58,652 nucleotides of DNA from IMG/VR virus record IMGVR_UViG_3300025154_000110, positions 1-58,652 of that record. The stretch is one strand, 5' to 3'. Shown here one piece after another: positions 13,895 to 55,907 of the stretch. The notes beneath the pieces were generated by a model. It ran no database searches, was not told the origin of the DNA, and worked only from the letters and a program-made list of their open reading frames with translations. The stretch comes from a virus. Taxonomy: Duplodnaviria > Caudoviricetes. The first letter of the stretch is position 1; the number at the start of each line of letters is the position of its first letter. Position numbers and translations under genes: made by a program.

Positions 13895-14104
13895 ATGAAA
13901 CTATTTATTGCTTTGGGATTTGCTCTGATGCTGGCCGGCTGTGCAAACAGTAGCCGGAACTTGACGGTGAAAGTGTACGACGGCGGGACGCTGATGATCT
14001 GTCACTCTACCATTTCCCCGGAGGTCATGAAGTCGAACACGGACGAAAGGGCTACGAACACTCCTGACATCAAGCCGGAAGTTACCATCCCGCTGGTCCC
14101 GTGA
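13895..14104 (+). CDS. Small lipoprotein (possible o-spanin-like)
   Basis: Lipobox LAGC after hydrophobic leader; in the lysis cluster. Confidence 0.65.
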   Translation: MKLFIALGFALMLAGCANSSRNLTVKVYDGGTLMICHSTISPEVMKSNTDERATNTPDIKPEVTIPLVP

Positions 14105-14114
14105 GGCGGAACGG

Positions 14115-14303
14115 ATGTTTCTTAAATTAATTCTCCCAGCAATTTTTCTCAGCGCCGGATGGTTTTTTATCGGGGCATCGGCGGTAATGGCGTCGGTTGA
14201 CTTCACTGATTTCTCTTTCGTTACCGGCGAATCCGTTAGGGTTTGTGCTGTAGGAATAGCATTGCTTGGGCTGGCAGGTTTAAGTTTCTTCTATTTTAAT
14301 TGA
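14115..14303 (+). CDS. Small two-TM membrane protein
   Basis: Two hydrophobic segments. Confidence 0.5.
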   Translation: MFLKLILPAIFLSAGWFFIGASAVMASVDFTDFSFVTGESVRVCAVGIALLGLAGLSFFYFN

Positions 14304-14311
14304 GGGGTATT

Positions 14312-14512
14312 ATGAATATATTTGAGCAGGCATGGGATTTCTTCGACAAAAAGAAAGTCGCAATCGGCTCTCTCCTGATGATGATTGCGATAGTCATGCG
14401 AAATAATCTGCCGGAATATGCAGGGTGGGCAGATGTTATCGAGGAAATAGGTCTTCTGCTTGGTGGCATCGGATTCGCCCACAAAGCTGTGAAGGAGTAT
14501 CGCGGTGAGTGA
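14312..14512 (+). CDS. Holin-like two-TM protein
   Basis: KKKVAIGSLLMMIAIV...LLLGGIGFAHKAVK; GAGGGG SD. Confidence 0.55.
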   Translation: MNIFEQAWDFFDKKKVAIGSLLMMIAIVMRNNLPEYAGWADVIEEIGLLLGGIGFAHKAVKEYRGE

Positions 14513-14927
14513 GTACGACGGTCAGCTAGATACCGAGGTCTATTATCGGGACAACCTCAAGTATGTTACTGCACGGCGTCATGCGTACAAGACCAAGTTG
14601 CGGCCAGGGCGCGACATCTACGGCAAGTTCGTCTCACTCCTGACGTGCGGCGTTTTGATCATCGAGGAAGGCTGCCCCTGGAATGGTGCGAACGTGGTCC
14701 CGGACAGGCGGACAAACATGCGAGCCTCGCTCATCCACGATACTCTCGTTGGCATGATCCAGGCCGGTATCCTTGATCCAAAGTTTAAAACTGAAGTTGA
14801 CGAAGAATATTATGACACCTGCCGCCAGGACGGGATGTGGCTATTCCCGGCAATCACTGAATTTTGGGGTGTTCAGCTTCATACTTGGGAACGAACTCCA
14901 ATCGACGCAATAAAGGTGGCACCATGA
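14505..14927 (+). CDS. DUF1353-like protein
   Basis: W-N-G-A...RASLIHD..., D..Y...C..DGM pattern typical of lysis-cluster DUF1353-type genes. Confidence 0.55.
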   Translation: MSEYDGQLDTEVYYRDNLKYVTARRHAYKTKLRPGRDIYGKFVSLLTCGVLIIEEGCPWNGANVVPDRRTNMRASLIHDTLVGMIQAGILDPKFKTEVDEEYYDTCRQDGMWLFPAITEFWGVQLHTWERTPIDAIKVAP

Positions 14928-15115
14928 AGAAAAACAGCAAGATATATGTTAGCAACACCGGCCTGGACTGGCACAAGCGATATTTCTCTCACTGGCTTGA
15001 CGGACGAGCAATCTGTTTCACTGGTGGCTGCACTTCGTGGTCTGCGGACGGAACTGCTTCATGGGAATTCTGGAAAGATAAACAAGGCAGAATCAAAACG
15101 ATACTAAACAAGTAA
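14924..15115 (+). CDS. Hypothetical protein
   Basis: W..RYFSH..DG...CF.GG.TSWS motif; coupled to the upstream stop. Confidence 0.55.
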   Translation: MKKNSKIYVSNTGLDWHKRYFSHWLDGRAICFTGGCTSWSADGTASWEFWKDKQGRIKTILNK

Positions 15116-15153
15116 GCCTGTGAGCCCATAGGGCCGGGGCAAAGGATGGAGCA

Positions 15154-15471
15154 ATGGAAGCTGGCGAAGCGGCAAGCTATGGGAAACTGGGGGTGCTTGT
15201 GTTTACAGCGTTCTCTGCAGTATCGGCCTTTGTCTGGAAGGCTCATCGGCACGGGGAAAAGATTGAAGATTTGGAACGAGCCGTTTTCCCGGATGAACCA
15301 GGGCGCAAGCTATTAACTCTTGATTGGCATGATCGGATCCAGGCCGAATGTGAGCGGCAGAGGGCAAAAGACATGGAGATTTTGTCAGCTCATATTGTTG
15401 AACAGCTCCGCGATAAACTGGATGAGATCAAGAATGAATTCTGGGAGCGGAGAAGGGAGCCACGGCAATGA
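15154..15471 (+). CDS. Membrane-anchored coiled-coil protein (holin/i-spanin-like)
   Basis: N-terminal TM followed by charged helix. Confidence 0.55.
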   Translation: MEAGEAASYGKLGVLVFTAFSAVSAFVWKAHRHGEKIEDLERAVFPDEPGRKLLTLDWHDRIQAECERQRAKDMEILSAHIVEQLRDKLDEIKNEFWERRREPRQ

Positions 15472-34142: not shown

Positions 34143-34736
34143 GTGGCCGGAGCAGATTACGGCGTCATAGAGCCAGAGTGGAGAGCCGGGATATTGACCG
34201 TCCGGCAGCTTTCCGCGCTTTATGAGGAGAGGACCGGCGGCAAATTATCGCACCAGGCGATAACCAAATATTTCACCAAGTTCGACATCCCCCGTGATCT
34301 CAGCGCAAAGATCAAGGCCAAGGCTGATGCACTGGTTGCCAAAGCGGCGGTTGCCAAAACGGTTGCCAAAGCAACAGAGTCGTCAACCGTTGATGCAAAT
34401 GCACACGCCCAAGCCGATGTCATCCTCTCTCACCGTACTGATGTACCGCAGCAGAGGGAGCTGGTCCGAAAGCTCGCCGCCGAGGTCGATGCCCTGACCG
34501 ACAACAAGGAACTCGTTGAGCAGATGACGCTGGCTCTGGAATCCGGAGACATGGAAAAGCTGGCAGGCGTTGCTCAAAAGGTAGCGAGCTTGCCGATGCG
34601 GATAAAGGGCGCCGTTGAGCTGGTAGGAGCGCTGAAGAGTTTGGTCGAACTGGAGCGCAAGGTGTTTGGAATCGAGAGCCAACCGGCCGGGAATACAATC
34701 GAAGATCTCCTGGAGAAGCTCGATGCCTGCGATTGA
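34143..34736 (+). CDS. Terminase small subunit
   Basis: IEPEWRAGILTVRQL HTH, RDLSAKIKAKADALV, LVELERKVFGI; precedes TerL. Confidence 0.8.
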   Translation: MAGADYGVIEPEWRAGILTVRQLSALYEERTGGKLSHQAITKYFTKFDIPRDLSAKIKAKADALVAKAAVAKTVAKATESSTVDANAHAQADVILSHRTDVPQQRELVRKLAAEVDALTDNKELVEQMTLALESGDMEKLAGVAQKVASLPMRIKGAVELVGALKSLVELERKVFGIESQPAGNTIEDLLEKLDACD

Positions 34737-36219
34737 TGTGCTCCGCGAGCTCAGGAGAAACTATCCGCTCTACGCTTCGCAATACCTGCGGATTAAGGAC
34801 AAGGACGGAAAAATTGTTCCACTCGCGCTGAACCGGGCACAGCAATATGTGCATGAGCAGATCGAGAACCAGTTGCGCGAGACCGGCCGGGTCCGGGTGC
34901 TGGTGCTTAAAGGTCGGCAGCAGGGGATTTCCACCTACACCGAAGGCCGACTTTACTGGAGAACGACGCTGAACGGGGGAAAGACGGCTTTTATCCTGAC
35001 GCATGAGGACAAAGCAACGACCAATATTTTCGGTATGGCCAAGAACTACCACGACAACCTGCCGCCCGCCCTTCGCCCGCACACTGGAGCAAGCAACGCG
35101 AACGAACTGGTATTTGACCGGCTGAAAAGCAGGTATGCAGTCGGGACGGCTAGGACAACCGGGACAGGACGGAGTTTCACCGTTCACTATTTCCACGGGT
35201 CTGAAGCCGCGTTTTGGCTGAACGCCAAAGACCATCTGGCAGGCCTGGGGCAAACTGTCCCCGACCTGCCAGGAACCGAGATCATCATCGAGAGCACGGC
35301 GAACGGAATCGGGAATATGTTCCACACGATGACCATGCAGGCTATGCGCGGAGAAGGCGACTACCGGCTGATATTCGTTCCATGGTACTGGCAGCCGGAA
35401 TACACCCGGGAAGTGCCGGAAGGCTGGTCGATGACCGAGGAAGAGCTTGAATACAAGGCCATTTACGATCTCACAGACGGCCAGATGGTATGGCGCCGGG
35501 CGAAGGTCGAGACGGATTTCCAGGGAGATTCGGGGCTGTTTGACCAGGAATACCCGGCAAGTATCGCTCTGGCGTTTCGGTCCTCAACACTTGGGAGCTA
35601 CCTGGAGCTGCCGCTGATTGAAAAAGCGATGTCCACGGATATTCAGCCGGACGAACAGGCCCCGAAGATTATGGGGGTTGACCCGGCCGAGTACGGCGAG
35701 GATGCCTCCGCGATAGCCTGCCGACAAGGAAGGGTTGTGCTACCTATTGACCGTTACCGCAAGAAGGGAACGATGGAGATTGTTGGGCTGACTGCAATCA
35801 AGGCCGATGCCTGGAAGCCGGACGCTATCAATGTTGATTGTACCGGAATTGGCTCTGGGGTTGCCGACAGGCTCCTTGAACTCGGATACCCAGTGAACAG
35901 GGTCCATAACGGAGAAAGGGCTGTTGAAGAAGCCCTATATATCCGCCGTAAAGAAGAGATGTACGGCGCGTTCAAGAAGTGGCTCGAAGATTCTCCGTGC
36001 TCACTGCCAAACGATGAAGTGCTGAAGACCGACATGGTTGGGCCTACCTACAGTTACGATTCATCAAGGCGACTGGTAATGGAGAGCAAGGAGAAAATGA
36101 AAGCCCGCGGGATACCGTCTCCGGATAGCGCCGATGCTGTAGCCCTGACATTCGCCGTGAGGATAGCCGCGAGGAAGCAGCAACCCCGCCGCGCCCCAGC
36201 AAACTGGAGAGTCGCCTGA
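34723..36219 (+). CDS. Terminase large subunit
   Basis: LKGRQQGIST Walker A, FHGSEAAFW, IESTANG, MGVDPA, SPDSADA. Confidence 0.93.
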   Translation: MPAIDVLRELRRNYPLYASQYLRIKDKDGKIVPLALNRAQQYVHEQIENQLRETGRVRVLVLKGRQQGISTYTEGRLYWRTTLNGGKTAFILTHEDKATTNIFGMAKNYHDNLPPALRPHTGASNANELVFDRLKSRYAVGTARTTGTGRSFTVHYFHGSEAAFWLNAKDHLAGLGQTVPDLPGTEIIIESTANGIGNMFHTMTMQAMRGEGDYRLIFVPWYWQPEYTREVPEGWSMTEEELEYKAIYDLTDGQMVWRRAKVETDFQGDSGLFDQEYPASIALAFRSSTLGSYLELPLIEKAMSTDIQPDEQAPKIMGVDPAEYGEDASAIACRQGRVVLPIDRYRKKGTMEIVGLTAIKADAWKPDAINVDCTGIGSGVADRLLELGYPVNRVHNGERAVEEALYIRRKEEMYGAFKKWLEDSPCSLPNDEVLKTDMVGPTYSYDSSRRLVMESKEKMKARGIPSPDSADAVALTFAVRIAARKQQPRRAPANWRVA

Positions 36220-38513
36220 TGTTTACCACCCTGACCAGGACCATGGACGAAAGCAAGGTGCCGGTGATCATCGACCAAGGCGCCGATGCAACACGGGCGA
36301 ACTCTGACGCTCTGGCCAATGTCCTGGAAGAGATCCGGAACCAGCCGTCATGGCGTGGCCGGGCCGACAAGGAGATGGACTACAAGGATGGCAACCAACT
36401 GGATGCCGATATCCTGCAGCGCCAGCAGGCGATAGGGATACCGCCGGCCATCGAGCCGCTGATTGGCGCGACGATTGACGATATCCTGGGCATGGAGGCG
36501 AAGAACCGCACTGACTGGCAGGTGTTGCCGGATGGTGACGAGAGCGCTGAGGAAGTAGCCGAAGGGTTAAACCACAAGCTCAACAAGGCAGAAAAGAAAT
36601 CGGGCGCGGATCATGCCTGCTCCGAAGCTTACGAAAGTCAGGTATCGGTTGGTATCGGTTGGGTTGAGGTTGCCAAAGAGCAGGACCCATTCAAATTCCC
36701 GTACCGGTGTGAGGCTGTCCACCGCAATGAAATCTGGTGGGATTGGACCGATAAGAGAAAAGACATTTCAGCGGCCCGCTGGCTATTGCGCCGGAAATGG
36801 TCCGATGTAGACATTGCCGCGCTCATGTTCCCTGACAAGGCGGAGCTTATCCGCCGGGTTGGCAATAACTGGGGCGGCACGGATATCACGGAGCTGATCA
36901 GCGAAGGCGGAACAAGTACCGACCTGGCCATGGAATACGAAGCAGAGCGCGGCTGGTCGGTCGAAGAGCAGGAATGGCGCGACCTGATGAACCGGCGCGT
37001 CTGTCTTTTTGAGCTGTGGTATCGTCAGTTCATGCGGGCGGAAATCCTGATGGCTCCTGGCGGAAGGGTAATCGAGTTCAACCGGAAAGACCAATGGCAC
37101 ATGGAAGCCGCACGGTTCGGGAAAGGCTACAAGGTTGTCGAGGCGGTGATCGGAAAGGTTCGGCTGGCGTGGTTCCTCGGGCCTCATTTGCTTATGGACA
37201 TGCCTAGCCCTTACCGACATAACCGGTTCCCTTATATTCCGTTCTGGGGCAAGAAAGAGGACCGGACCGGCGTGCCTTATGGCCTGATTCGCGGCATGAT
37301 GTACCTGCAGGACGAGATCAACGCCCGAATCAGCAAGATGCAGTGGGGCCTGGCCGCGGTTCGGACGATCCGGACGAAAGGTGCCGTGCTGATGGATGAC
37401 GCGACTTTCCGGAACGAGGTTGCGCGGCCGGATGCGGATATCCTCCTGGACGCCCAGGCGATGCAGCAAAAGGGTATTTTCAAGATCGAGCGAGATTTCC
37501 AGTTGAGCGAGCAGCAGGCCCGCCGGCTGGAAGATGCCCGTGAAGCGATCAAGCGCGTTGGCCGGGTAACGGATGCCTTCACCGGAAACGATCCGAAAGG
37601 GCAGTCCGGCGTTGCGCTTTCTCAGTTGGTTGAGCAGTCGGTCCAATCCCTGGCCGACATGAACGACAATTTCCAGTACGGCCGGGCGCTGGTTGGAGAT
37701 ACCCTGTTGAGCCTGATCCTTGAGGACATGAAGGGCAACGAGGAATCAATCTTCATCGAGGGCGACACGATCCAGCAGGCCAAGACCATCAAGCTGAACG
37801 TCCCGACCGTGGACCAAATTACCGGAGTTGAATACCTGAACAACGACACGGAGCGCGTGAAGCTGAAGGTGGAACTGGCCGATGTGCCGACCACTCCGAG
37901 TTTCAGGACTCAGCAGCTCGCCAGTATCTCGGAAGTGTTCAAGTCGATGCCGGCGAACTTCCAAAGCGTGACCCTGCCCTATGTTCTGGACCTGATGACC
38001 ATCCCGCACAAGAAAGAGATCATCGAGGCAATCAGGTCAATGAGCCAACAGGCTACGCCTGAACAGATCGAACAGCAGATCAAGGATGCAGTTGAGAAGG
38101 CGCTGGCCCTGAAGGGCTTTGAGGTCAAGAATCGGGAACTGGATATCAAAGAGCGCGAGACCGACGCCCGGATAAAGAAGCTGGTCCAGGAGACCGTGAG
38201 CCAGGCCATTGACGCCATCTACTCAGCCACGCAGGCCGGGAAAGAGATTGCGGTTGCGCCGGGTGTTGCACCGATTGCTGATCAGGTGTTGAGGTCGGCG
38301 GGGTTCGAGGACCAGGACCAAGCGCCGATAGTGGCCGGGCCTGCAGGAGTCGTGCCGGGCATTGCGCCCCCTGCTCCTCGGCAGAATACATCTCCGATGT
38401 TTCCACCAAGAGCGACGGAGCCGGGGACCCCTCCTCCTGGAATTCCCACCCCGGCTCCGGCCGCTCCCCTAGACGGCATGAACGCCGGAATAGAAGCGCA
38501 GGGGGTTGAGTGA
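36219..38513 (+). CDS. Portal protein (podophage type)
   Basis: WR..ADKEMDYKDGNQL, GIGWVEV, FPYIPFWG, PYGL.RGM...QD..N, SGVA; follows TerL. Confidence 0.9.
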   Translation: MFTTLTRTMDESKVPVIIDQGADATRANSDALANVLEEIRNQPSWRGRADKEMDYKDGNQLDADILQRQQAIGIPPAIEPLIGATIDDILGMEAKNRTDWQVLPDGDESAEEVAEGLNHKLNKAEKKSGADHACSEAYESQVSVGIGWVEVAKEQDPFKFPYRCEAVHRNEIWWDWTDKRKDISAARWLLRRKWSDVDIAALMFPDKAELIRRVGNNWGGTDITELISEGGTSTDLAMEYEAERGWSVEEQEWRDLMNRRVCLFELWYRQFMRAEILMAPGGRVIEFNRKDQWHMEAARFGKGYKVVEAVIGKVRLAWFLGPHLLMDMPSPYRHNRFPYIPFWGKKEDRTGVPYGLIRGMMYLQDEINARISKMQWGLAAVRTIRTKGAVLMDDATFRNEVARPDADILLDAQAMQQKGIFKIERDFQLSEQQARRLEDAREAIKRVGRVTDAFTGNDPKGQSGVALSQLVEQSVQSLADMNDNFQYGRALVGDTLLSLILEDMKGNEESIFIEGDTIQQAKTIKLNVPTVDQITGVEYLNNDTERVKLKVELADVPTTPSFRTQQLASISEVFKSMPANFQSVTLPYVLDLMTIPHKKEIIEAIRSMSQQATPEQIEQQIKDAVEKALALKGFEVKNRELDIKERETDARIKKLVQETVSQAIDAIYSATQAGKEIAVAPGVAPIADQVLRSAGFEDQDQAPIVAGPAGVVPGIAPPAPRQNTSPMFPPRATEPGTPPPGIPTPAPAAPLDGMNAGIEAQGVE

Positions 38514-38869
38514 TGGCATTAGAAATATTCAGGAGAGGCGATATTGTCACGGTTGGGAGAGACCCCCGCTATTCTAATGACAAGTTCATTATTGGAAACG
38601 GGACGGAACAGCTTAGCCCGCTGAAACCGGGGCAACGGTTCAGAGTTATCGAGGATGGAACAATTGACAGCGTTGAGGTCGAGCAGATTGGTGACGTAGA
38701 TTGGTACGGGACCGCTTACGCTGATGTAGACAGTTTCATCGTAGCGAATATTTGCCCACTCGACTGCGGCGGGACGATATGCGCACTGGCTAGGAACAGA
38801 AAGGGCGACAGGGAATCGTTTTACCTAATGTACAAAGGCCGAGAAGTACGGCCATTCAGGGGAAATTGA
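38510..38869 (+). CDS. Hypothetical protein
   Basis: Coupled to the portal stop; lower GC. Confidence 0.55.
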   Translation: MMALEIFRRGDIVTVGRDPRYSNDKFIIGNGTEQLSPLKPGQRFRVIEDGTIDSVEVEQIGDVDWYGTAYADVDSFIVANICPLDCGGTICALARNRKGDRESFYLMYKGREVRPFRGN

Positions 38870-38881
38870 AGGGAGAGGGAA

Positions 38882-39448
38882 ATGATTACGCGGAAATTTA
38901 CAAAGTTTGTTGGACCTGATGTCAGCGAAGAGTCTGCATTGAATGTGGTTGCATGGAACGGACTTACACACGCAGTATTGCGTGGCAATGGCGACTTCGG
39001 GATTCTTGACGAGGTTGAAATAGAAATAAACGTGAGAAAAAAGGCAGCCAGCGGGGGATCGTGTGCCGAACAGCCGAAAGCCAGCCAGAACGATTACCTG
39101 TACTTGCTCGAAAAAATTGAAAACCTGAAGGATAATCGTGTCCCACGTCGCGAGTTTGAACAGTACAAGCACGACACGGAAATGCAGATCGAGCGGCTAA
39201 AGCATGTGGTCAGCACGCTGGAGGGTAAGGTCGAAAGAGAATCAATCCTTCCAAAAGGACCGCCGGCCCCGATCTTCATGGTTGACTGCTCGCAGATTGA
39301 CCACGGGAAAAGAAAGGAAAAATTCGAGAAATGCAGAAAGAGAATGGCCGACCTATTGCCAGGGATAGAGGGCACAAGCCATTTCCGCATAGGTGTTGAG
39401 GCCGCCTTGGGAATCTTCCTTGAGGAATACGGAGACGGCCAGAAATGA
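38882..39448 (+). CDS. Hypothetical protein
   Basis: GGAGAGGG SD. Confidence 0.6.
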   Translation: MITRKFTKFVGPDVSEESALNVVAWNGLTHAVLRGNGDFGILDEVEIEINVRKKAASGGSCAEQPKASQNDYLYLLEKIENLKDNRVPRREFEQYKHDTEMQIERLKHVVSTLEGKVERESILPKGPPAPIFMVDCSQIDHGKRKEKFEKCRKRMADLLPGIEGTSHFRIGVEAALGIFLEEYGDGQK

Positions 39449-39633
39449 AATACGACTACGAGTGCATCAAATGCCGCAAGGTAACGGAGCATGAGTGCAA
39501 GCTGGCCGACAAGCCAAAGAGCCTCGAATGCCCGGAGTGCAAAGGCACAGCCTGGCCGGTGATTTTGACCACAGTTTCAAACCACTTCCCGCAGGGAAGA
39601 TGCAAGGGCGGCTATTTCCGTCCAAACTTTTAA
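39445..39633 (+). CDS. FmdB-like zinc-ribbon protein
   Basis: YDYECIKC...LECPEC. Confidence 0.75.
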   Translation: MKYDYECIKCRKVTEHECKLADKPKSLECPECKGTAWPVILTTVSNHFPQGRCKGGYFRPNF

Positions 39634-39646
39634 CAAGGAGTATGCA

Positions 39647-41029
39647 ATGAAAAAGAATGTGTTTGGCCTGCGAGGAGTAGCCATTTTCGCGGCCCTGGTG
39701 CTGCTGGTTGCCGGGTTTTCTATTCCGGCCTTTGCCGACTACTGGGTAACTTATTCCGGGACCGGTGCGAAAGGACCGATCAGGATTGGCCAGGATGTTG
39801 AGTGGGCAACTGGTGATACCAAGATTGTCAGCGAAGAGGTGATCGGCTGGTACAACGAGAATTCTTCCGTCTTCACTGTGACCGAGGTTACGGCGACAGG
39901 AGCGGAACTGAACAAGCTGGACGGGTTCACTGGGGCTTATACCGATCTGAACGTGATCGATATCACCACCCTTGGAACGGCCCAGGCCAGTAAGGCGCTC
40001 AGTTCCGACGCCAACCTAGACACCACCACAGTACGAAACTTCACCGCGACCGGAACGGTGCAGGCCGAGCAACTGACCAGTACCGATGATATCACAGCCA
40101 CTGATCTGGTGCAGGGCGCAGATGTCACCGCAACCGACGACGTGACGGCAGGAGACGACCTGACCGTTGTCGGTGCCGCTGCCATAGGCGAGACGCTGAC
40201 CGTGACCGGAGCCGTGTCTACAAGCAATGATGTTACGGTTGCCTCGGAGGCTACCGGCGGCAATGCCGGTGCCAGGAATAAGATCGTCGGCCTGCCCGGG
40301 CTCAAACTGAAGTCCATGGGCACGATGGTAAACGGGACCACGGAGACCATCGCCTATATCGACGCCACCCCAACCGGCGAATGGGCGGAAGTGGATGCCG
40401 GGACGAACGTGGCCATTACCGCAGACACCACCTATTACCGGGATGTGACCAACTCGGTCAAAATCGCCTTCGGCGCCACTGCTGTTGAGAATGACGGAGT
40501 GGACGGGACCATTACCCAGGACGACCTGAGCGGTAATGGCCACGTAGGATTTTGGTTGATGACTGACAAGGCCACGGCTTCCGGCGACCTGGATTTGACC
40601 ATTGATGACACCGACGGAACAGATCAAGCTTATGTTCTTCCGGCCACCGCTGCCGGCGTGTGGGAGTGGGTCGAACTGGATGTCTCCGGGTGTGATGCCA
40701 ACTGTAACACTGCCGACGGTATCCAAGTCCTGTTGACTGCGCAGGGGGCTGCCGCTTTCGGCGTGGCCACCGGCGAGACGCTGAATGTCTATCTGGACGC
40801 TATGTACAAGTGGGATGCGGACAATGAAGAGGCCCTCGGGTCCGCCATCGTTCAAGATGGTGTCTTGTCTGTCGCCAAGGTTGTTGTGGCGCAGGACCAG
40901 GTAAACACGCCTGTTGATCTGGCCGAGTACACCGACTATTTCGTGCATTACGAGAGCGGAGTTGACTTCATCGTGACGGTTTCCGATCAGTCGGCCGCCG
41001 CCGGTATCGCCTTGATCGCTACCGAGTAA
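39647..41029 (+). CDS. Signal-peptide-bearing head fibre/decoration-like protein
   Basis: 30-aa leader ending IPAFA; ATGAELNKLDG fibre motif; DVTATDDVTAGDDLTV beta repeats; C-terminal beta-sandwich. Confidence 0.7.
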   Translation: MKKNVFGLRGVAIFAALVLLVAGFSIPAFADYWVTYSGTGAKGPIRIGQDVEWATGDTKIVSEEVIGWYNENSSVFTVTEVTATGAELNKLDGFTGAYTDLNVIDITTLGTAQASKALSSDANLDTTTVRNFTATGTVQAEQLTSTDDITATDLVQGADVTATDDVTAGDDLTVVGAAAIGETLTVTGAVSTSNDVTVASEATGGNAGARNKIVGLPGLKLKSMGTMVNGTTETIAYIDATPTGEWAEVDAGTNVAITADTTYYRDVTNSVKIAFGATAVENDGVDGTITQDDLSGNGHVGFWLMTDKATASGDLDLTIDDTDGTDQAYVLPATAAGVWEWVELDVSGCDANCNTADGIQVLLTAQGAAAFGVATGETLNVYLDAMYKWDADNEEALGSAIVQDGVLSVAKVVVAQDQVNTPVDLAEYTDYFVHYESGVDFIVTVSDQSAAAGIALIATE

Positions 41030-41175
41030 TGAAGGAAGTAGAGGCCCGCCAGCTCGCGGCAGAGATCCGGGAGCTGTGCAAGAAACATGGGGTTTGGCTC
41101 ATCATCGAGGAAGAGCACAAGCCCGCCCTGGCCATGATCAGGGTCAAGGAAATCAGTATCAAGGTGGACAAGTAG
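41029..41175 (+). CDS. 48-aa protein (not in ORF track)
   Basis: TAATG coupling; MKEVEARQLAAEIRELCKKHGVWLIIEEEHKP...ISIKVDK. Confidence 0.6.
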   Translation: MKEVEARQLAAEIRELCKKHGVWLIIEEEHKPALAMIRVKEISIKVDK

Positions 41176-41177
41176 CC

Positions 41178-41390
41178 ATGGCCCTGAAGAAGGTAAGCAT
41201 AAAGGGCGAATCGATATTTGTTGGGCAGGGATATGGGCCTACAGTGCGAATATCCGTGCCGGCAAATTCAGAATACGATTTCAAGAGAAAGGAAACCTTT
41301 ATCGACCTTCCCCTTATGGACAAGGAGGACCTCGAAAACTGGATATCCGCGCTGATGGAAATGAGGGTACTGTTTGAGGAAACATCATGA
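41178..41390 (+). CDS. Small hypothetical protein
   Basis: MALKKVSIKG start after GGTGG. Confidence 0.55.
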   Translation: MALKKVSIKGESIFVGQGYGPTVRISVPANSEYDFKRKETFIDLPLMDKEDLENWISALMEMRVLFEETS

Positions 41391-41433
41391 CTTAGCTTGA
41401 CATGACATAACTATAACCGGACGACCACCAAAT

Positions 41434-41487
41434 AGGGGCGGCGGATTCTCACTCCACACGGAGAGGAATCTTGCCGCCCTTTTTTTT
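41434..41487 (+). terminator. Long terminator/attenuator hairpin before the scaffold gene
   Basis: GGGCGGCGGATTC...GAATCTTGCCGCCC then T8. Confidence 0.75.
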
Positions 41488-41591: not shown

Positions 41592-42599
41592 ATGGCAACA
41601 GCAGCAGAGTTTTTGGAGCAGAACCAGCAGGACGGGATGATCTCCCCCGAAAAGATGGAAGAACTTCTTTCAGGAGGCTTTGAATTTGAAGGCCACGGGA
41701 AAGACCCTGACGCCAAGGATGAGCCGGAAGTGAAGGCCGAGTCTGAAAAGGCAGCGCCGGAAGCGGCGGAAGAGCCGGAAGCAAAGCCGGTGATCATGGC
41801 CAAGGATGGAGTCCATACCATCGAGTACGAGAAACTGGAGGAAGCCCGCCAGGAAGCGCAAGAGGCGAAAGCCCAACTCGCAGCCCTGACGCAGCAGAAT
41901 CAGGAGATGGCCGGAAAGTTGGCAACGCTCGAAGAACAGTTTGCCGCGGCACAGAAGGTCGATGTCAAGACCGGGACCGACGACGCAACCAGGCAGCTTA
42001 TTGAAGAGGCCCGGGAGATGGAGCCGGAGTTGGTCAAGGCGTTTGAAGCGATGCAGGCGGCCGAAAGGGCGACCTACAAAGCCGAACTGGACGCCCGCGA
42101 CCAGAAGATTGCTGCACTGACCACGAAGGTCGAGTCCGAACTGGAGCCGATCAAGGCGGCCAAGCAGGGGTTGGATGTTGAGAAGCATTTCTCTTCCATC
42201 CGCCAGGATGTTCCTGAGTTCGACGCGATCATGGCCGGCGAGGACCTGGCCAAGTTTGTCGAGAGTAAGCCGTCCTTTGTACGCAACGGATATGTCGACG
42301 TGCTGCAGCGCGGCACAGCGGCGCAGGTAGTAGAGCTGATGAACGACTTCAAGGGGTCGACCTTTTACAAGCCGCCCGCAGGCGAGACAGCGGGAAAGGT
42401 AAAGCCTGAGAAGGAGATAGAGGTAAAGAAGTCCCCTCCTGTCAGCCTGTCAGAGATGCCGGCCGGGACCCAGGCGCACGGCGACCCCGCCGACGCCCTG
42501 GCGAACAGTTCCGGAATCGGAATCCTGTCGGCGCTGGAGGGTAAATCCAAAGAAGAAGTAGACCGGCTCGTTAACCGGGCACTCCGGATGAAGGTGTAA
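41592..42599 (+). CDS. Head scaffolding protein
   Basis: Acidic coiled coil, AKDGVHTIEYEKLEEAR; directly before the MCP gene. Confidence 0.8.
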   Translation: MATAAEFLEQNQQDGMISPEKMEELLSGGFEFEGHGKDPDAKDEPEVKAESEKAAPEAAEEPEAKPVIMAKDGVHTIEYEKLEEARQEAQEAKAQLAALTQQNQEMAGKLATLEEQFAAAQKVDVKTGTDDATRQLIEEAREMEPELVKAFEAMQAAERATYKAELDARDQKIAALTTKVESELEPIKAAKQGLDVEKHFSSIRQDVPEFDAIMAGEDLAKFVESKPSFVRNGYVDVLQRGTAAQVVELMNDFKGSTFYKPPAGETAGKVKPEKEIEVKKSPPVSLSEMPAGTQAHGDPADALANSSGIGILSALEGKSKEEVDRLVNRALRMKV

Positions 42600-42627: not shown

Positions 42628-43902
42628 ATGACTCATATCCCTTCAGGCAGCGCGCTGGCCAACACCATCAAAAGCGCCGGCCTTTTCGTAAACTGTATGC
42701 AGCGGCCCACCCTGATGAACAGGCTGGCCGGACCGATGCCCCTCCAGAAGGACGCCGAGGGCCACCTGCGCCTGCAGTCGTCCACAGATTACCCCATCGT
42801 TCGTTGCCGGGACCTGTCAAAGAAGGCCACCGATGAAATTTCCTTCGACCTGTTCAACATCATCGGCGGGAAGCCGGCGATGGGCGACACGAAGATCGAG
42901 GGTTACGGCGAGGCCATGACCGGGACCACCGACTCGCTGAAGATCAACCAGTACCGCAAGGCAATCACCGCCGGCGGGAAAATGACCCAGCAGCGGACCC
43001 CATGGGAGCTTGACAAACTGGCCAAGGCGCAGGCGGAAAGCTACATGATGCGCCTGAACGACCAGCTTCCCCTGGTCCACCTGGCCGGTGCCCGTGGTGA
43101 TGCGTACAGCATTGAGTGGGCAATCCCGCTCGCTTCTGATCCCGACTTCGCTTCGATCCTGATCAATACCCTCCGTGCCCCGACCCGCAACCGGCATTTC
43201 ATGTCTACCGGTTCCGGCATTGAGCAGATCGCGGCCGGCGGCAATGAAATCACCATTGCCACAACCGACGTGATGAACACGGACGTGCTGGACGAGATCC
43301 GGATGTATGTGGATGGCATGTCCCTCCCCATGCCCCCGGTGAAATTTGACGGCGACTCGGCGGCGGAAGACTCTCCCCTGCGTGTGCTCATGGTATCGAG
43401 CGAGCAGTACGGAAGCATCAAGAGGTCAACCAACTTCAGGGCACTGCAGGCGCAGGCATATGCTCGCGCCTCCCAGGCGAAGAACCACCCGCTTTTCTTG
43501 GGTGATGCGGCGATGTGGGAAAACATCTTGATCGTCAGGATGCCCAAGCCCATCCGCTTCAACTCCGGGACCGCTATCAACTGGTGTGCACTGACAACCT
43601 CGACCACCGAGACCACCACCGACCTCGTGCCGGCAGCGTTCAGCACCACGCACGCTGTTGACCGGGCGCTGCTGCTTGGCGGCCAGGCATTGGCCCAGGC
43701 GTTCGGAAAGGACACCAGGACCTCCAACCCGTTCTTCTGGTCTGAGAAGTGGCTGGATCATGACAACGAGTTCGAGGTCGCCATCGGCATGGTCGCTGGT
43801 AACAGCAAGATCCGCTTCCTGGTCGATCACGGCGATTCGTCCCAGTACACGGACTACGGTGTCATGGCCATTGACTCGGCCATCGCCCTGGCTGGTCGGT
43901 AA
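42628..43902 (+). CDS. Major capsid protein (N4-gp56/DUF4043 family)
   Basis: PIVRCRDLSK..DEISFDL, GGKMTQQRT, VHLAGARG, HPLF.G, RALLLGGQAL, DYGV..ID. Confidence 0.92.
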   Translation: MTHIPSGSALANTIKSAGLFVNCMQRPTLMNRLAGPMPLQKDAEGHLRLQSSTDYPIVRCRDLSKKATDEISFDLFNIIGGKPAMGDTKIEGYGEAMTGTTDSLKINQYRKAITAGGKMTQQRTPWELDKLAKAQAESYMMRLNDQLPLVHLAGARGDAYSIEWAIPLASDPDFASILINTLRAPTRNRHFMSTGSGIEQIAAGGNEITIATTDVMNTDVLDEIRMYVDGMSLPMPPVKFDGDSAAEDSPLRVLMVSSEQYGSIKRSTNFRALQAQAYARASQAKNHPLFLGDAAMWENILIVRMPKPIRFNSGTAINWCALTTSTTETTTDLVPAAFSTTHAVDRALLLGGQALAQAFGKDTRTSNPFFWSEKWLDHDNEFEVAIGMVAGNSKIRFLVDHGDSSQYTDYGVMAIDSAIALAGR

Positions 43903-43959: not shown

Positions 43960-44439
43960 ATGGCAACTGCTACCAAAAAATATCTCCGCCAGGCTTTGAT
44001 CAAGAGCGGAGGGGCATACGGCAACCTGTCGGTTCTGCCGTTTAAGTTCGAAACCACCGCCGCCGGGATCTGCACTGATTCCGACCTGACAACCGCTGTT
44101 GTGAATGGGACCGTTGTACGGCTCGGCATCCTGCCGGCCGGCGCGACCCTGTATGACGGGAACCTGATCGTCAGCAACGCAACCACCAACGCCTGCACGA
44201 TGAAGGTCGGTTTTCAGTATGTGGACGGCGTTGATTCTTCTGCCGTGCCCCAGGATGACGACTTCTTCCTGGCGGCATCCGCGATCAATGCCACCGGCCT
44301 GACCAGGAAATCGGCCGGCTTTGCTCCGGTGAAACTGCCGAAAGAGGCTTACCTGATCGGCACCGTTGAAGGCGCTGATATTGGCGATGCGAGCGCGTTG
44401 GAGTTCGACGTGATTTGCAACCTGGCAGGCCCGGCGTAA
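43960..44439 (+). CDS. Capsid decoration/cement protein
   Basis: YGNLSVLPF...VRLGILPAG...GFQYVDGVD; follows the MCP gene. Confidence 0.7.
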   Translation: MATATKKYLRQALIKSGGAYGNLSVLPFKFETTAAGICTDSDLTTAVVNGTVVRLGILPAGATLYDGNLIVSNATTNACTMKVGFQYVDGVDSSAVPQDDDFFLAASAINATGLTRKSAGFAPVKLPKEAYLIGTVEGADIGDASALEFDVICNLAGPA

Positions 44440-44519: not shown

Positions 44520-45251
44520 GTGCAACGAAAAGCGATAGCGATGATCTGTCACAGCGCGATTATGGCGCTCCGGTCCGTCCGGGGAATGGATGTCAAGGCG
44601 TGGGATAAAGAGCCGGCCGACAAGCAGGAAAGGTATGTCGCCGGGGTCAACGAGGAGGCGGAAGGCAATCTCCCAACCCTTGAGGAAAGCCACGACTCAT
44701 GGCGGGCCAGGCTGCCGGAAGAACACCCGGAAAAGGGCATCACCTGGGACCAGCTTGACGACCCGGAAAAGGCGGAGCGGGCCATCTTCTCCTACGTTGT
44801 CGCAGCCTGCAACAAGGTCCAGGGCGCCGTGACCATCGTCAAAGACACCGAAAACAACGAGATTCCGACCGAAGCGGTCAAGTACATCGGCCACCGCGCT
44901 TCTTACCGGGACGGCGTGTATGGCACGAATATCACCTGGCAGAAGGGCGAGACGATTCTTGTCCAGGCCAGCAAGGCGCACCTGATGTTTCGGCATAAGG
45001 ATGTCTGGGTGATGGGCGACAAGGCCGACGCTAGGGCACCGGACGTTGACCCGCTCGCCACCGACAAAGAACAGCGTGCCCAAGAAGACAGGATCCAGGA
45101 CGCCCGCGACCAGCTTACCAGGATGGACAAGGACGCCATGGTTAAGTTTGCCACCCATTATTTCCCCGGGCAGAAGTTCCACCCAAACCTCGGGCCGGAG
45201 AAAATGCGGGCGCAGCTTGACAAGATGATCGACCAGTTTGGGCTCATCTGA
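44520..45251 (+). CDS. Virion-associated protein with N-terminal RyR-like domain
   Basis: IAMICH...AW...EESHDSW...HP...WDQL pattern; C-terminal VKYIG.R...D..YGT...W..GET..V. Confidence 0.6.
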   Translation: MQRKAIAMICHSAIMALRSVRGMDVKAWDKEPADKQERYVAGVNEEAEGNLPTLEESHDSWRARLPEEHPEKGITWDQLDDPEKAERAIFSYVVAACNKVQGAVTIVKDTENNEIPTEAVKYIGHRASYRDGVYGTNITWQKGETILVQASKAHLMFRHKDVWVMGDKADARAPDVDPLATDKEQRAQEDRIQDARDQLTRMDKDAMVKFATHYFPGQKFHPNLGPEKMRAQLDKMIDQFGLI

Positions 45252-46225: not shown

Positions 46226-47151
46226 CGAAACCAGTCACCATCTACGCGGGCGCTGCTGGGGGGGATAACGCCCACCGCGAAGATGATATCGGGTTCAACT
46301 CTGACACCGGAGTAACGGCGCTGGCCAAGGGCGTCAATGTCGTGATCGAGAGTTCCGGCAAGGGCCGGCCGCGCTGTCGCCGGGCCAATGGATATTCTGA
46401 GCTGTTCGCCGGGGCCTATCATTCCGGGTTCCGCGATACCGGGGACGCCTTTGTGGCCAAGGGGACGTTGCTCTACCGGTTCAAGCGCGAAAGGACGCTG
46501 CAACTCATAGTCTCCGGGTTGACCGGTGCGCGACTCTGCTACGCGCAACACGGTGAGCGGACATTCTACGGGAATGGGACGCAGGGCGGGGTTATCGAAG
46601 GCGGGGTAGCTTCATCCTGGCCGACAGATTCTTACCTTGGCATGGATACCGTCCGGGCCTATTCAGGCGCACCGGTTCCAGGGAAAATGTGCATCCACGG
46701 GGGCCGGATCAACATTGTGACGCCATCAGACCCGAATACCATATATGGCTCAGAATACGGCATGTTCAACACCTTCTTCAAGGCGGAGAACCACCAGAAT
46801 TTTGAATCGAGGGTAATCATGATGGTTGAGGTGGAGACCGGCATGTTTGTCTCTACCGAACACCACACATGGTTCATGCAGGGACAGGGCGCTTTGCGGG
46901 ACATGAAGCTGTTCAACAAGGATGTCGGGCCGGCCTTTGAATGGTCGGAATGGCACCAGAAAGTAGCTGTTGCGGACCTTGGCCTGCCAGGCGGCGGATA
47001 CTGCCGGCTCTGGCGTGGAAAGACCGGGGCAATGGTCGGCTTTGCTGACGGAAGTATTGCGAATTTGACAGACAAGATGATCGACACGAATTGCGGGGGC
47101 CTTGGGGCGTCGTGCTACATGAAACCCCATTTCATTCATTCAGTAGGATAG
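46222..47151 (+). CDS. Tail structural protein (nozzle/stabilisation-like)
   Basis: Position after the adaptor; G.DN...A..VNV.I...G...R..G pattern. Confidence 0.55.
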   Translation: MTKPVTIYAGAAGGDNAHREDDIGFNSDTGVTALAKGVNVVIESSGKGRPRCRRANGYSELFAGAYHSGFRDTGDAFVAKGTLLYRFKRERTLQLIVSGLTGARLCYAQHGERTFYGNGTQGGVIEGGVASSWPTDSYLGMDTVRAYSGAPVPGKMCIHGGRINIVTPSDPNTIYGSEYGMFNTFFKAENHQNFESRVIMMVEVETGMFVSTEHHTWFMQGQGALRDMKLFNKDVGPAFEWSEWHQKVAVADLGLPGGGYCRLWRGKTGAMVGFADGSIANLTDKMIDTNCGGLGASCYMKPHFIHSVG

Positions 47152-47162
47152 GAGAAAAGGAT

Positions 47163-47900
47163 ATGTGGAATTTAAGCACTGGCGCCAAGCTAGCCCTCCT
47201 GGGCCTTGAGTCTGTTAAGAAGCTCCAGAAAACAGCGGTAACTCTCGCTTTTCAAGACGGAACCGGGACAGGCGGCCGAGACAGGATTTTCGATTCTGCG
47301 AACGGGCTTGCCGGGTTTGCCGACTATGTTCATGACTATGTCGGAGTCGGCGGGAGCACCAGCAATAACTTTTGCCCGAAGATACTGGCGGCGGCTGCCG
47401 GTTATATCGAGGTTCCGGCCGGAACATTCTCGACCGAGGCTGAAGGGGACCAGGTTATCCTCAGCGTTCACCGCGGCGGATCGTTCCAGGAAGTATTCAG
47501 AAACTCGGTCCTGCACCTGTTCGCCGTATCGCGGCCAGCTGACGCTGACACCACGGAAGGGGCAAGCCCGCTGGTCATCATCACGAAAGATGGCGGGGCC
47601 TTTGTCTCCGGCTCACCGACGAACGGGATCAACTTCACCGTCGATGTGGACGGGAACGTGGTCATTACCACCGACCCAGCCACCGATGCAGATATGGTCC
47701 TGAAGGGCCTGGGTCTGGTTGCAGGAGACGCCTTGTTCGGTCGGCTCTATGCCAATACGGTTGTCACCGGGAACAGCACAAGCGCCGTCCGGGCAGACGG
47801 CAGGGTTGGCCTGTCCGGGGTCGAGATAAACATGAGCGCCGGAGTAGGTATCACCGTCGGCGTTTATGCAACCGTTACCGATGTCGAAATGTACGTTTAA
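47163..47900 (+). CDS. Tail-associated structural protein, paralog 1 (no signal peptide)
   Basis: MWNLSTGAK start with GGAG/AAGG SD; aligns end to end with the mature part of 47911-48705. Confidence 0.75.
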   Translation: MWNLSTGAKLALLGLESVKKLQKTAVTLAFQDGTGTGGRDRIFDSANGLAGFADYVHDYVGVGGSTSNNFCPKILAAAAGYIEVPAGTFSTEAEGDQVILSVHRGGSFQEVFRNSVLHLFAVSRPADADTTEGASPLVIITKDGGAFVSGSPTNGINFTVDVDGNVVITTDPATDADMVLKGLGLVAGDALFGRLYANTVVTGNSTSAVRADGRVGLSGVEINMSAGVGITVGVYATVTDVEMYV

Positions 47901-47910
47901 GGGGTGTGCC

Positions 47911-48705
47911 ATGAAAGTATTTGAGAAACTCGGGATTATTCTCGCTCTGTTGGTCTTGACATGCGGGACAGCAAGCGCAACCGTCATCCTTTCCAAGCAG
48001 ACGGCGGAAGACCTTGCCGGAGGCCGGGCAGTCGTCAATGTTGTTATCCAGGCTGCGACCATTGCTTATGTTGACGGCGGTGCCGGGAACGACCAGATCC
48101 ACGACTCAGCGAGCGGGCTGGCCGTGTTCCATATTGGGGACAAGGTAACGGTCGATGGATCAACCAGTAATGACGGAACTTACGAAATTCTTGACGTTTC
48201 TGCGACAGATCTTGATGTCGGTACCGGGCTCTTAACAACCGAAGCGGAAGGTGACGCGACAGCCCTTGCCTCTGCCCGGGGAATGAGCCTGTCTGACATC
48301 TTCCGGCGCGGGGTGATCAGGATCTATTCCGGGGCACAACCTGCTTCACCGGAAACAGTTGAGTCCGGGACCCTGCTTTTGGAGATCAGCGAGAGTTCCG
48401 GCGCATTTACCGGCGGGGCAGATGCCAACGGCCTATTGTTCGATGACGTGACCTGCGGGGCCGCTTCCTGTTCTGTCGCCAAGATGGTCAGCCAGGTATG
48501 GAGCGATGCCGGTCTTGATACCGGAACAGCCGCGTGGGGGAGACTGTATGACAACGCCTTCGACACTGGAGCCGATGCTGGCGAGGCGTACCGGAGGATT
48601 GACTTTTCGGTAGGAGTTGCTGGAGACTTGGTGATGTCCCCGTCTGTTACCACCGGTGTCACCAAAACCATTGACGAATTCACCTTGACAGTGCCATTGC
48701 AGTAA
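47911..48705 (+). CDS. Tail-associated structural protein, paralog 2 (with signal peptide)
   Basis: AAGGGGTG SD; MKVFEKLGIILALLVLTCGTASA leader; IRIYSGAQPAS, TGTAAWGRLY. Confidence 0.75.
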   Translation: MKVFEKLGIILALLVLTCGTASATVILSKQTAEDLAGGRAVVNVVIQAATIAYVDGGAGNDQIHDSASGLAVFHIGDKVTVDGSTSNDGTYEILDVSATDLDVGTGLLTTEAEGDATALASARGMSLSDIFRRGVIRIYSGAQPASPETVESGTLLLEISESSGAFTGGADANGLLFDDVTCGAASCSVAKMVSQVWSDAGLDTGTAAWGRLYDNAFDTGADAGEAYRRIDFSVGVAGDLVMSPSVTTGVTKTIDEFTLTVPLQ

Positions 48706-54170: not shown

Positions 54171-55907
54171 ATGGCCCCACAGAAAAAGTACATCAAGGAC
54201 AAGGACGGGAAAATGGTTGAAGTGCCTGATGGCGCGGCACCTGCGGTTAATCCTAATTCGGTGGCTGGCGCCGCGGTGAACCTCAAGGAAAGCGCTGTCC
54301 AGGGCGTAAAGGATTTTGCCTCCGTCGTGTCATCTCCAGCCGAGACGGCCAAGAGCCTTGGATCAAGGATAGTTGGCGATGTCAAGTCCATTCCGGCCGG
54401 CGCGGTAAATGCGGCGAAGAATTGGGCGAAGGAGGGTATCGCCATTGGCGACAAAGTTGGCGGCGTGTTGCCCTGGGCCGGGAAGACAGCAGAGGCGGTT
54501 GAGGCGGCGAAGGGCGCGACTGAGGCCGGCGGCATTCCAGCCGGTATCGGCGTCGGGCTGCGGAAAACCCCGGGCCTGGTTTTTGAGGCCGCGAAAGATA
54601 CGGTTGGCGGGATCGTCAATGAAGATGTGCGGGCGGCGAATAGAGCAGTCGGCCAGGGAATCATTGATGTTGCATCAACTGCGGCTACCGGGAAGGTCAA
54701 ACCGAAGGCAGAGAGCCCGCCGGCAGGGGCCGTAGCAGCAGAACCGCCGGCCGCTGAGAAAGAAGCAGCACAACCGGCGACCTCTACGCAACCATTACCG
54801 TTTCACGGCACCCCAACGGCCACGTCGGCCGAGAGTGACCCGATGGACGCGGACGGCAGCGCCGGGCAAGGAGGACCTCCACCGGCAACCGCACAGATTG
54901 GAAATTACCAGCAGAACGCCCAGGGCCAGCCGGAAACCAGGCGGTACAGGGACCCAAACACCGGAGACTATACCTATTCGCTCCCAGGCGGGAACATCAC
55001 CGTCAAGGGCGGGGCGGAGAAGATCACCCGCGAGCCCGGCGAGCAGAACATGGGCGGGTACGGTGCCCGCCGGCCGGCCAAGACTGCAGGTTCGGGTGTT
55101 GCTTCTTCGACTGGCGGCTATGGCGCTTATGAGGACCAGAAGGCACGGCTGAAAGAATATCACGACAAGCTGTTCCAGCCGGTAGACGAGGCGAACAGGT
55201 ACAAACCGACCGTCCAGACCAAGTTCCGGAATAAGGAAGACGAGGTTGCGGCCGAAAACGCCAGGCACATTGAAGAGCGGGCCGCGAAGAACGCCGCGCA
55301 AGTTGCGAAGGACAATGCCATCGCCGCGGCGCAGAATGAGGAAGTTTCCCGTAATCTCGCCATCCAGGCGCCGAGGATTGGCGTCATGCAGCAGGAACTT
55401 GTTGATCGGCAGGCGCAGACCGGAATTGATCAGCAGCGGGCAGACATTGAGGCCGGCCGGGCCGGGGTTGACCAGCAGAAGGTGCAGTCTGACATTGCCG
55501 AATCTCAGCTTACGGCGCAGGAAAAAGAAATGATGAATGCGGCCCGGGCCAAGGTGCAGGCAGCGACGACGCAGGAAGAGAAGGACGCCGCCGTACAGGA
55601 GCTTGCCGCATTGAGCGGGAACTTCCCTAAAACGAAAGATGTCAATCCCAGCTGGGCTTTTGTCCCGCCGGAGACGAACGCGGCCGGCGAGGTTGTCAAG
55701 GAAGGGTTCTACTATGACAAGAACAGCCCGACGAATCCGGGGAGAGAGAAGCGCGGCGGCGCTGATGCGGTAGCGGCAGCGGAGCAGGAACTTGGCGGCA
55801 TGGGCGAAGACGTGGCGCAGCAGGCGGCGGCTATCAGGGCGCAGGTGAAGGCAGGAAAGCTGAAAAAGGCTGAAGCACTCAAACGACTCAAAGAATTGGG
55901 GCTGTAA
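54171..55907 (+). CDS. Ala/Gly/Gln-rich internal virion (ejection) protein
   Basis: Low-complexity helical protein before the giant gene; TAATG coupling. Confidence 0.65.
   Translation: MAPQKKYIKDKDGKMVEVPDGAAPAVNPNSVAGAAVNLKESAVQGVKDFASVVSSPAETAKSLGSRIVGDVKSIPAGAVNAAKNWAKEGIAIGDKVGGVLPWAGKTAEAVEAAKGATEAGGIPAGIGVGLRKTPGLVFEAAKDTVGGIVNEDVRAANRAVGQGIIDVASTAATGKVKPKAESPPAGAVAAEPPAAEKEAAQPATSTQPLPFHGTPTATSAESDPMDADGSAGQGGPPPATAQIGNYQQNAQGQPETRRYRDPNTGDYTYSLPGGNITVKGGAEKITREPGEQNMGGYGARRPAKTAGSGVASSTGGYGAYEDQKARLKEYHDKLFQPVDEANRYKPTVQTKFRNKEDEVAAENARHIEERAAKNAAQVAKDNAIAAAQNEEVSRNLAIQAPRIGVMQQELVDRQAQTGIDQQRADIEAGRAGVDQQKVQSDIAESQLTAQEKEMMNAARAKVQAATTQEEKDAAVQELAALSGNFPKTKDVNPSWAFVPPETNAAGEVVKEGFYYDKNSPTNPGREKRGGADAVAAAEQELGGMGEDVAQQAAAIRAQVKAGKLKKAEALKRLKELGL

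Follow-up and report, generated by a model that had tools for sequence, protein, structure and literature searches.

A predicted exported phage-type fibre with a lectin-like head, encoded among the capsid genes of a tailed virus

Background

The mosaic adhesive trimer (MAT) fibres of Bdellovibrio bacteriovorus consist, in the accessible part of their description, of a signal peptide, a conserved N-terminal domain, a trimeric phage-like shaft and swappable tips (PMC10769870). The turret head protein gp31 of the archaeal virus HFTV1 (PDB 8qpg) is trimeric and possesses a galactose-binding-like domain which, according to the available text, is proposed to bind host glycans (10.1101/2024.12.09.627619). 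Here we describe the gene at positions 39647..41029 of the IMG/VR virus record IMGVR_UViG_3300025154_000110 (Duplodnaviria; Caudoviricetes). The window, i.e. the whole stretch of DNA that was analysed, is this complete record of 58,652 bases, rated 95% complete, and all positions refer to it unless another locus is named. The product of the gene appears to be an exported phage-type fibre with a lectin head; less probably, it points to a hitherto unrecognised way of assembling virions.

According to the current view, the cytoplasm is the only compartment in which particles of tailed phages are built. Head fibres and decoration proteins such as phi29 gp8.5, T4 Hoc and lambda gpD are not known to carry an export signal and assemble in this compartment. 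Those phage proteins that are exported usually serve exclusion or lysis, are small and are encoded elsewhere in the genome. T5 Llp and Cor, for instance, are exported exclusion proteins, often lipoproteins, which act on the envelope receptor and protect the progeny from cell debris.

The initial annotation of 39647..41029, made from the sequence alone, had proposed a head-fibre-like protein with a signal peptide. This feature is real and more general than had been seen; the resemblance of the mature N-terminus to the product of another gene of the window (44520-45251) is due to chance. Leader features, family-wide export signals, the trimer prediction, the carbohydrate-binding module (CBM)-like fold, module swapping and head-module synteny were all computed. 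The reading that we favour, with a probability of roughly 45%, is that of a trimeric, phage-fibre-like lectin that is exported by the Sec system, functions in the envelope of the host cell during infection and has the architecture of the MAT fibres of Bdellovibrio.

Results and Discussion

The leader peptide and the mature N-terminus

The open reading frame (ORF) at 39647..41029 (designated P0001) is located on the plus strand, as are all of its parts mentioned below, and comprises 460 codons plus a stop codon. A ribosome-binding site, AAGGAG (39636..39641, plus strand), can be read directly from the sequence six nucleotides 5' of the ATG. The N-terminus of the product, MKKNVFGLRGVAIFAALVLLVAGFSIPAFA, is composed of a basic n-region, a hydrophobic core and an A-x-A motif. 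Hydropathy scans predicted a Sec-type signal peptide at residues 1-30 (39647..39736), and the elements typical of a substrate of signal peptidase I are all present: the basic residues K2, K3 and R9, the core VAIFAALVLLVAGF and a c-region SIPAFA which ends in A28-F-A30. Cleavage is predicted between A30 and D31 and would leave a mature protein starting with DYWVTYSG.

The domain that follows the leader was found in only ten of the proteins collected, all of which have leaders. Although these leaders vary freely in sequence and length, each of the ten ends with small-x-A directly before a conserved [DN][YW]WVT. For this reason the mature end is placed at DYWVTY, three residues before the VTY with which the initial annotation had let it begin; the signal peptide with its leader ending in AFA was recognised correctly there. 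A conserved junction behind divergent leaders is the strongest argument for signal cleavage, and the product of 39647..41029 is best regarded as a putative exported and processed protein. An alternative, leaderless start was rejected because no in-frame ATG, GTG or TTG was found near codon 31 on inspection of the sequence. A signal-anchor-release (SAR)-type signal was rejected as well, since the core is strongly hydrophobic and the A-x-A motif conserved, so that a classical signal fits better.

The leader is followed by a lineage-specific N-domain (residues 31-78, DYWVTYSG...FTVTEVT; 39737..39880) with 26 positions invariant among the ten proteins and a structural model of low confidence. A database search with this domain gave only seven matches, all of them leader-bearing. 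The same module of leader and N-domain is joined to four different C-terminal heads.

Shaft, head and C-terminal subdomain

The structure of the product was predicted by AlphaFold2 from an alignment of 110 sequences. The mean predicted local distance difference test score (pLDDT) was 80, with values of 81-98 from residue 161 onward and low values before. Residues 79-224 (39881..40318) form a fibre shaft in which an ELNKLDG-type repeat is followed by T/D-rich beta repeats, and which is predicted to be an intertwined homotrimer. The motif TGAELNKLDG, noted earlier as fibre-type, is indeed part of a repeat (residues ~79-160) common to long leaderless fibre proteins. This segment matches ten tandem stretches in each of two such proteins, P0172 and P0192. 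The former carries Peptidase_S74, a chaperone typical of tail fibres. In addition, the related repeat of another family member (P0059) matches an annotated tail fibre of a cultured phage. A C-terminal intramolecular chaperone of the Peptidase_S74 type was also considered for P0001 itself and dropped, as there was no Pfam match.

When three copies of residues 31-232 were modelled together, the complex prediction score was 0.85, compared with 0.00 for the best control. In the calibration, 20 of 30 proteins solved as pairs of one chain scored this high, compared with one of 23 solved as single chains; these counts hold only roughly because the calibration used two copies, not three, and because a custom alignment was used for the present prediction. 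Contacts agreed to at least 86% between runs, and the pLDDT of the partner chains was at least 74. The chains meet over residues 79-224 in a register shifted by about six residues, which is the pattern of an intertwined fibre; almost no contacts involve residues 31-78. The fibre nature assumed in the initial annotation is thus supported by the predicted homotrimer.

The shaft bears a CBM-like beta-sandwich head (residues ~229-393; 40331..40825) with a pLDDT above 90. In VIA-align the head was superimposed on the CBM30 structure 2c24_A with a Z score of 15.1 and a root-mean-square deviation (rmsd) of 2.1 (147 residues aligned over 232-393). Further matches were CBM22, CBM11, CBM4 and CBM29, and Foldseek gave the same families. 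Predicted viral structures labelled as tail fibre or CBM also matched this fold, as did the turret head of HFTV1 (8qpg_TC; Z 13.5, rmsd 2.7, 141 residues aligned). The ESM Atlas yielded only CBM-like leads, with scores below 0.85, and a comparison of the sequence profile of P0001 with PDB gave no match at E-values up to 1. Residues W339, W341, W389, D239, D321, D384, D390 and E394 of the head are near-invariant, which is only suggestive of sugar binding. On the strength of the modelled fold the head may bind carbohydrate.

The confidently modelled C-terminal part, a distinct domain as proposed in the initial annotation, also contains the CDANC motif noted there (residues 349-353; 40691..40705). 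CDANC is invariant in the 16 closest relatives, and both of its cysteines are present in 37 of the 108 rows of the wider alignment. A need for a disulfide was rejected as a general reason for export, since the pair occurs in only these 37 rows. The protein ends with a beta subdomain (residues 394-460; 40826..41026) with a pLDDT of 92-98 and strands between residues 401 and 459.

An unnamed family with export signals

Among 1.84 billion representatives of clusters at 50% identity, a family search detected 724 matches at E-values up to 0.001, 319 at 1e-10 and 161 at 1e-30. What is conserved is the C-terminal module (~residues 190-460 of P0001), which is located at the very end of proteins of 174-1536 residues and stops, in the median, one residue before the protein end. 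The conserved head is attached to many different N-terminal parts. Two near-identical loci illustrate variation in the shaft: the homologues in L004 (9029-10798) and L005 (9329-10798) have 589 and 489 residues, respectively, the difference being two copies of a shaft repeat of 50 residues.

N-termini were examined for the best 196 of the 724 matches, of which 182 carry the C-terminal module. No fewer than 172 of these 182 proteins start with a basic residue and a hydrophobic core. Sorted by regular expressions, 33 of the 172 have a lipobox, which on visual inspection is convincing in about 28; in 134 the core is followed by small-x-small, and five show other hydrophobic forms. As for the remaining ten, one has a weaker but similar N-terminus and nine look like fragments or short forms. 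Several members possess no cleavage site and show a conserved G-V-x-Y-P-L-P after the helix, which suggests that they are signal anchors. Departure from the cytoplasm, be it by a cleaved signal, a lipoprotein signal or an anchor, is therefore the only constant N-terminal feature that can be predicted for the family.

The family has no match in Pfam, in PHROG (P0001, E-values up to 0.01) or, by sequence, in PDB, and hence no named decoration or head-fibre family was found in Pfam or, up to the same threshold, in PHROG. A tblastn search of 50,697 cultured-phage records with P0001, P0059 and P0136 gave no match to the C-terminal domain; only the shaft repeat of P0059 was found, in two records. 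The family was located at 12 IMG/VR loci, at one locus in a pattern scan of GTDB and in two of 301 Chloroflexota genomes. A cellular gene family was rejected because cellular occurrences were limited to the single GTDB locus and the two Chloroflexota genomes.

Alternatively, the protein could be an ordinary head or tail fibre that assembles in the cytoplasm, its hydrophobic N-terminus being a helix for trimerisation or anchoring rather than for export. The gene does lie within a head module, the repeats of the shaft also occur in leaderless proteins of the tail-fibre type, and another protein of the window (47866-48705) combines a hydrophobic N-terminus with a C-terminal half like that of a virion structural protein of phage KPP25. 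However, the leaders diverge and yet always retain the basic start, the hydrophobic core and the small-x-A junction. The lipoboxes in about 28 of the 172 signal-bearing members are, by estimate rather than computation, far above chance for a rare residue. Moreover, the segment directly behind the hydrophobic stretch, residues 31-78, makes hardly any contacts in the trimer model. A cytoplasmic fibre of this kind is very improbable.

Function in the envelope or on the capsid

In the envelope reading, a cleavable signal peptide (residues 1-30) would carry the chain out of the cytoplasm. The mature protein would start at D31 with the small lineage-specific N-domain, continue as an intertwined beta shaft and end in the CBM-type sandwich with its small beta subdomain. 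A lipid or a membrane helix would hold the N-terminal end in the envelope, a task that in this lineage would fall to the N-domain, so that the sugar-binding head could project and bind envelope polysaccharide. Late in infection the fibre would then occupy or mask surface glycans, thereby blocking superinfection and stopping the loss of progeny on cell debris. Such late masking of surface glycans seems the most likely purpose, and the envelope the preferred site of action. That the protein works outside the cytoplasm is proposed because predicted export is the constant N-terminal feature of the family, and the envelope is preferred over the virion because lipoprotein and anchor forms cannot decorate a capsid that has no membrane.

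The envelope reading gains some support from the fact that the phage of the window encodes other leader-bearing proteins. Leader-bearing ORFs at 9514-10029, 10026-11429 and 12124-12711 and a lipobox-like one at 12905-13672 surround a polysaccharide deacetylase gene (11426-12124; PF01522, E-value 2.6e-10). No Pfam or PHROG match was found for the leader-bearing ORFs of this region (9514-13672).

Several points weigh against a lectin of the envelope. A fold, and here a predicted one, shows no function by itself, and no Pfam family was found for P0001 at E-values up to 0.1, CBM models included. The export signals were judged by simple rules and not by a trained signal-peptide predictor. The outer membrane would separate a periplasmic fibre from the surface glycans, and its passage is unexplained. 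The mature N-domain, being conserved, has the look of a module that docks on one specific partner, and this partner could be the capsid. The last point is the position of the gene. Flanking genes were inspected at loci from IMG/VR, GTDB and metagenomes. A gene of the family was found no more than three genes away from the gene for the major capsid protein (MCP) in 13 distinct loci, i.e. the window and 12 others (L001, L002, L005, L007, L009, L010, L011, L012, L014, L027, L028 and L037). These are 13 of the 13 loci with nameable neighbours: L022, L031 and L032 had none nameable, L023, L033 and L035 were left out, and other loci were duplicates or too short. Decoration and head-fibre genes usually adjoin the MCP gene; exclusion genes or morons usually do not.

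Across the 13 loci the MCPs span seven PHROGs (334, 10, 29, 212, 3990, 247 and 371). The family gene is usually located directly downstream of the MCP gene, and in two lineages it is found upstream of the scaffold gene. This placement suggests a link to the capsid. The evidence pulls two ways, the position of the gene speaking for the capsid and its sequence for export.

Both lines could be reconciled if the product were a genuine head fibre which, after maturation in the periplasm, docks on finished capsids via the N-domain bared by signal cleavage. Docking would take place when holin lesions have mixed cytoplasm and periplasm, before the outer membrane breaks. Besides the synteny with seven kinds of MCP, this idea is favoured by the conserved N-domain, which begins precisely where the signal is cleaved and, like that of fibres attached to virions, is combined with four interchangeable heads. 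Folding outside the cytoplasm would agree with the conserved acidic and aromatic positions and with the cysteine pair in one third of the sequences. In addition, the turret head of HFTV1 demonstrates, as far as the available text goes, that a capsid can bear a CBM-type domain for the first contact with host glycans (10.1101/2024.12.09.627619). On the other hand, the ~28 lipoproteins among the signal-bearing members and the forms with signal anchors would stay membrane-held, unable to decorate a capsid. The N-terminal type does not track the PHROG of the MCP (compare L002 with L011 and L007 with L010). In the literature, searched mostly at the level of abstracts and in open sources, no tailed phage was encountered in which a virion protein is exported by Sec.

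A further argument for docking on the capsid was lost with the resemblance to the leaderless product of 44520-45251, a gene of the head region. The initial annotation had likened the mature N-terminus to a domain of this protein and deduced a capsid-docking function. The likeness was at chance level by BLASTP, by hhalign and in a window-wide comparison. BLASTP aligned only 15 residues of the two products (E-value 1.9). A profile of ten N-domain sequences compared with one of six 44520-type sequences by hhalign gave a probability of 1.1% and a P value of 0.048, the latter for one pair picked post hoc. A comparison of residues 31-80 with the remaining 72 proteins of the window did not place the 44520 product among the 12 best, the top match being another ORF with an E-value of 2.4. 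The invariant residues of the 44520 family (Y122, G124, R126, D131, Y134 and T136) are mostly unmatched in the N-domain. Model confidence was low in both segments, with a pLDDT of 55-66 for the N-domain and of 30-38, from a three-sequence alignment, for the 44520 segment. The regular expression derived in the annotation matches only its two source proteins, and nothing in 200 shuffles, and was given no weight because the test is circular. With homology at chance level the likeness provides no evidence for a shared capsid-docking domain.

Docking on the capsid after export is a possibility for cleaved, soluble forms such as the product of 39647..41029, where it would explain both the synteny and the conserved mature end; overall we consider a head fibre of this kind the less probable reading, though a serious one. 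Somewhat more doubtful still is the wider proposal that some tailed phages build part of the virion outside the cytoplasm and that the family marks a widespread, unrecognised two-compartment assembly route.

The protein might also reside in the envelope with a role other than glycan masking, for example as a lysis accessory spanning the periplasm or as an adhesin gluing infected cells to neighbours or particles. The N-in, C-out topology and the long-fibre shape would agree with this. A lysis-like cluster elsewhere in the window encodes a small lipoprotein as well as a coiled-coil membrane protein of type II. But lengths of 174-1536 residues do not fit a fixed periplasmic span, the gene was never beside lysis genes in the loci examined, and nothing points specifically to adhesion. 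A spanin-like role was dropped in view of the length range and the gene position, and another envelope role altogether is improbable, if less so than a purely cytoplasmic fibre.

The lysis-like cluster (13895-15471) itself is composed of a gene for a lipoprotein of 69 residues (13895-14104), two genes for small membrane proteins (14115-14303 and 14300-14512) and, at 15154-15471, a gene for a type II membrane protein of 105 residues which is rich in charged residues and was taken as a coiled coil. The cluster suggests holin and spanin parts and hence a host with two membranes.

The head module and other genes of the window

The head module of the window starts with genes for the large terminase (34666-36219) and a P22-type portal (36219-38513), which are followed by three small ORFs and then by the gene at 39647..41029. 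One small ORF and a strong intrinsic terminator separate the latter from a scaffold-like gene (41592-42599; phrog_479). Next come the MCP gene (42628-43902; PF13252/phrog_334), a gene for a phrog_8260 virion protein (43960-44439), the gene at 44520-45251 and one for an SU10-type adaptor. The MCP is ~46% identical to the MCPs of podoviruses of Pseudomonas, Shewanella and Pseudoalteromonas.

KPP25, a cultured relative, has its portal gene directly before the gene in the scaffold position, which is in turn followed by the capsid gene. The block 38510-41390 is therefore an insertion relative to KPP25. In the close relative L001 a homologue with 84% identity to the product of 39647..41029 is likewise encoded before the scaffold and capsid genes. 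A gene for a four-cysteine zinc-ribbon protein of 62 residues lies upstream of the fibre gene in the window (39445-39633) and downstream of it in L001 (1661-1846; 77% identity). Since it is found on opposite sides, the fibre cassette lies at slightly different points in the two phages.

The intrinsic terminator (41430..41487, plus strand) consists of a hairpin of -31.5 kcal/mol (z -6.4; none of 200 shuffles as stable) followed by U8. It parts the unit of terminase, portal and fibre genes from the scaffold and MCP genes. A simple terminator scan had missed it, and it was detected by folding against shuffles.

At three other loci, genes adjoining the family member also have a leader-like start (L022, 4963-5487; L023, 2783-4618; L027, 5181-5741), so that exported proteins may occur in small groups within these head modules.

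Several further ORFs of the window deserve mention. The product of 44520-45251 has relatives in Pseudomonas phage 8P, in a Bacillus phage and in a Shewanella phage, always amid structural genes. In two records, from this Shewanella phage and from a Pseudoalteromonas phage, such relatives are labelled alanyl-tRNA synthetase, which looks like a mis-annotation. The product of 47866-48705 shows a leader-like start from an internal Met, MKVFEKLGIILALLVLTCGTASA, and a C-terminal half resembling ORF006 of KPP25 (147 residues; phrog_3758). Judged by eye, the ORF upstream of it, 47091-47900, could be a paralogue that lacks the hydrophobic start. A polyvalent protein of 3064 residues with LPD1 and ART-PolyVal domains is encoded at 80-9274. 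The last ORF (55907-58651) runs off the end of the record after at least 915 codons and matches DarB-like, endolysin-like and minor-head PHROGs. The products of both are probably large proteins injected with the DNA.

Significance and comparison with known systems

The ORF at 39647..41029 is a member of a large viral family without a name. Its long, modular, lectin-headed fibres are, by prediction, nearly always exported, and yet in many phage lineages that are unrelated to one another their genes lie amid those of the capsid. Export combined with adjacency to capsid genes is explained by no known assembly route. Fibres acting in the envelope would represent a new kind of tool with which phages deal with the surface glycans of the host; for fibres that dock on the capsid, a new assembly route would have to be assumed. 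Either way the sequences of the family are defined and can be tested directly, and they may be a source of new glycan-binding modules.

With the head fibres and decoration proteins phi29 gp8.5, T4 Hoc and lambda gpD the protein shares a gene next to the capsid genes and the design of a fibre with an outward binding head. T5 Llp and Cor resemble the proposed fibre in being phage-encoded, exported and often lipoproteins. However, they are small, non-fibrous proteins which bind protein receptors, and their genes lie beside those for receptor-binding proteins rather than beside capsid genes.

CBM30, CBM22, CBM11 and CBM4 have the same beta-sandwich over residues ~230-393 (Z 15.1 to 11.5, rmsd 2.1-3.3). 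The identity to these modules is only 8-14%, and the product of 39647..41029 adds a conserved N-terminal wrap (residues 190-228) and the C-terminal subdomain (394-460). Gp31 of HFTV1 is likewise trimeric with a galactose-binding-like/CBM beta-sandwich, but shows 8% sequence identity, has a deacetylase domain and sits on the base of a capsid turret. No export signal is described for it in the accessible text (10.1101/2024.12.09.627619).

Some differences from the MAT fibres of Bdellovibrio are also evident in the part of the description available. MAT genes are chromosomal genes of a predatory bacterium, whereas the gene at 39647..41029 belongs to a phage head module, and some of its relatives use lipid or helix anchors, unlike MAT fibres. 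The N-domain has ~50 residues here and ~130 in MAT fibres. In both cases, however, a signal peptide is followed by a conserved N-domain, a trimeric shaft and variable C-terminal tips, and the MAT fibres are displayed outside the cytoplasm (PMC10769870). By analogy, the MAT fibres of Bdellovibrio are the nearest known architecture to that predicted for the product of 39647..41029.

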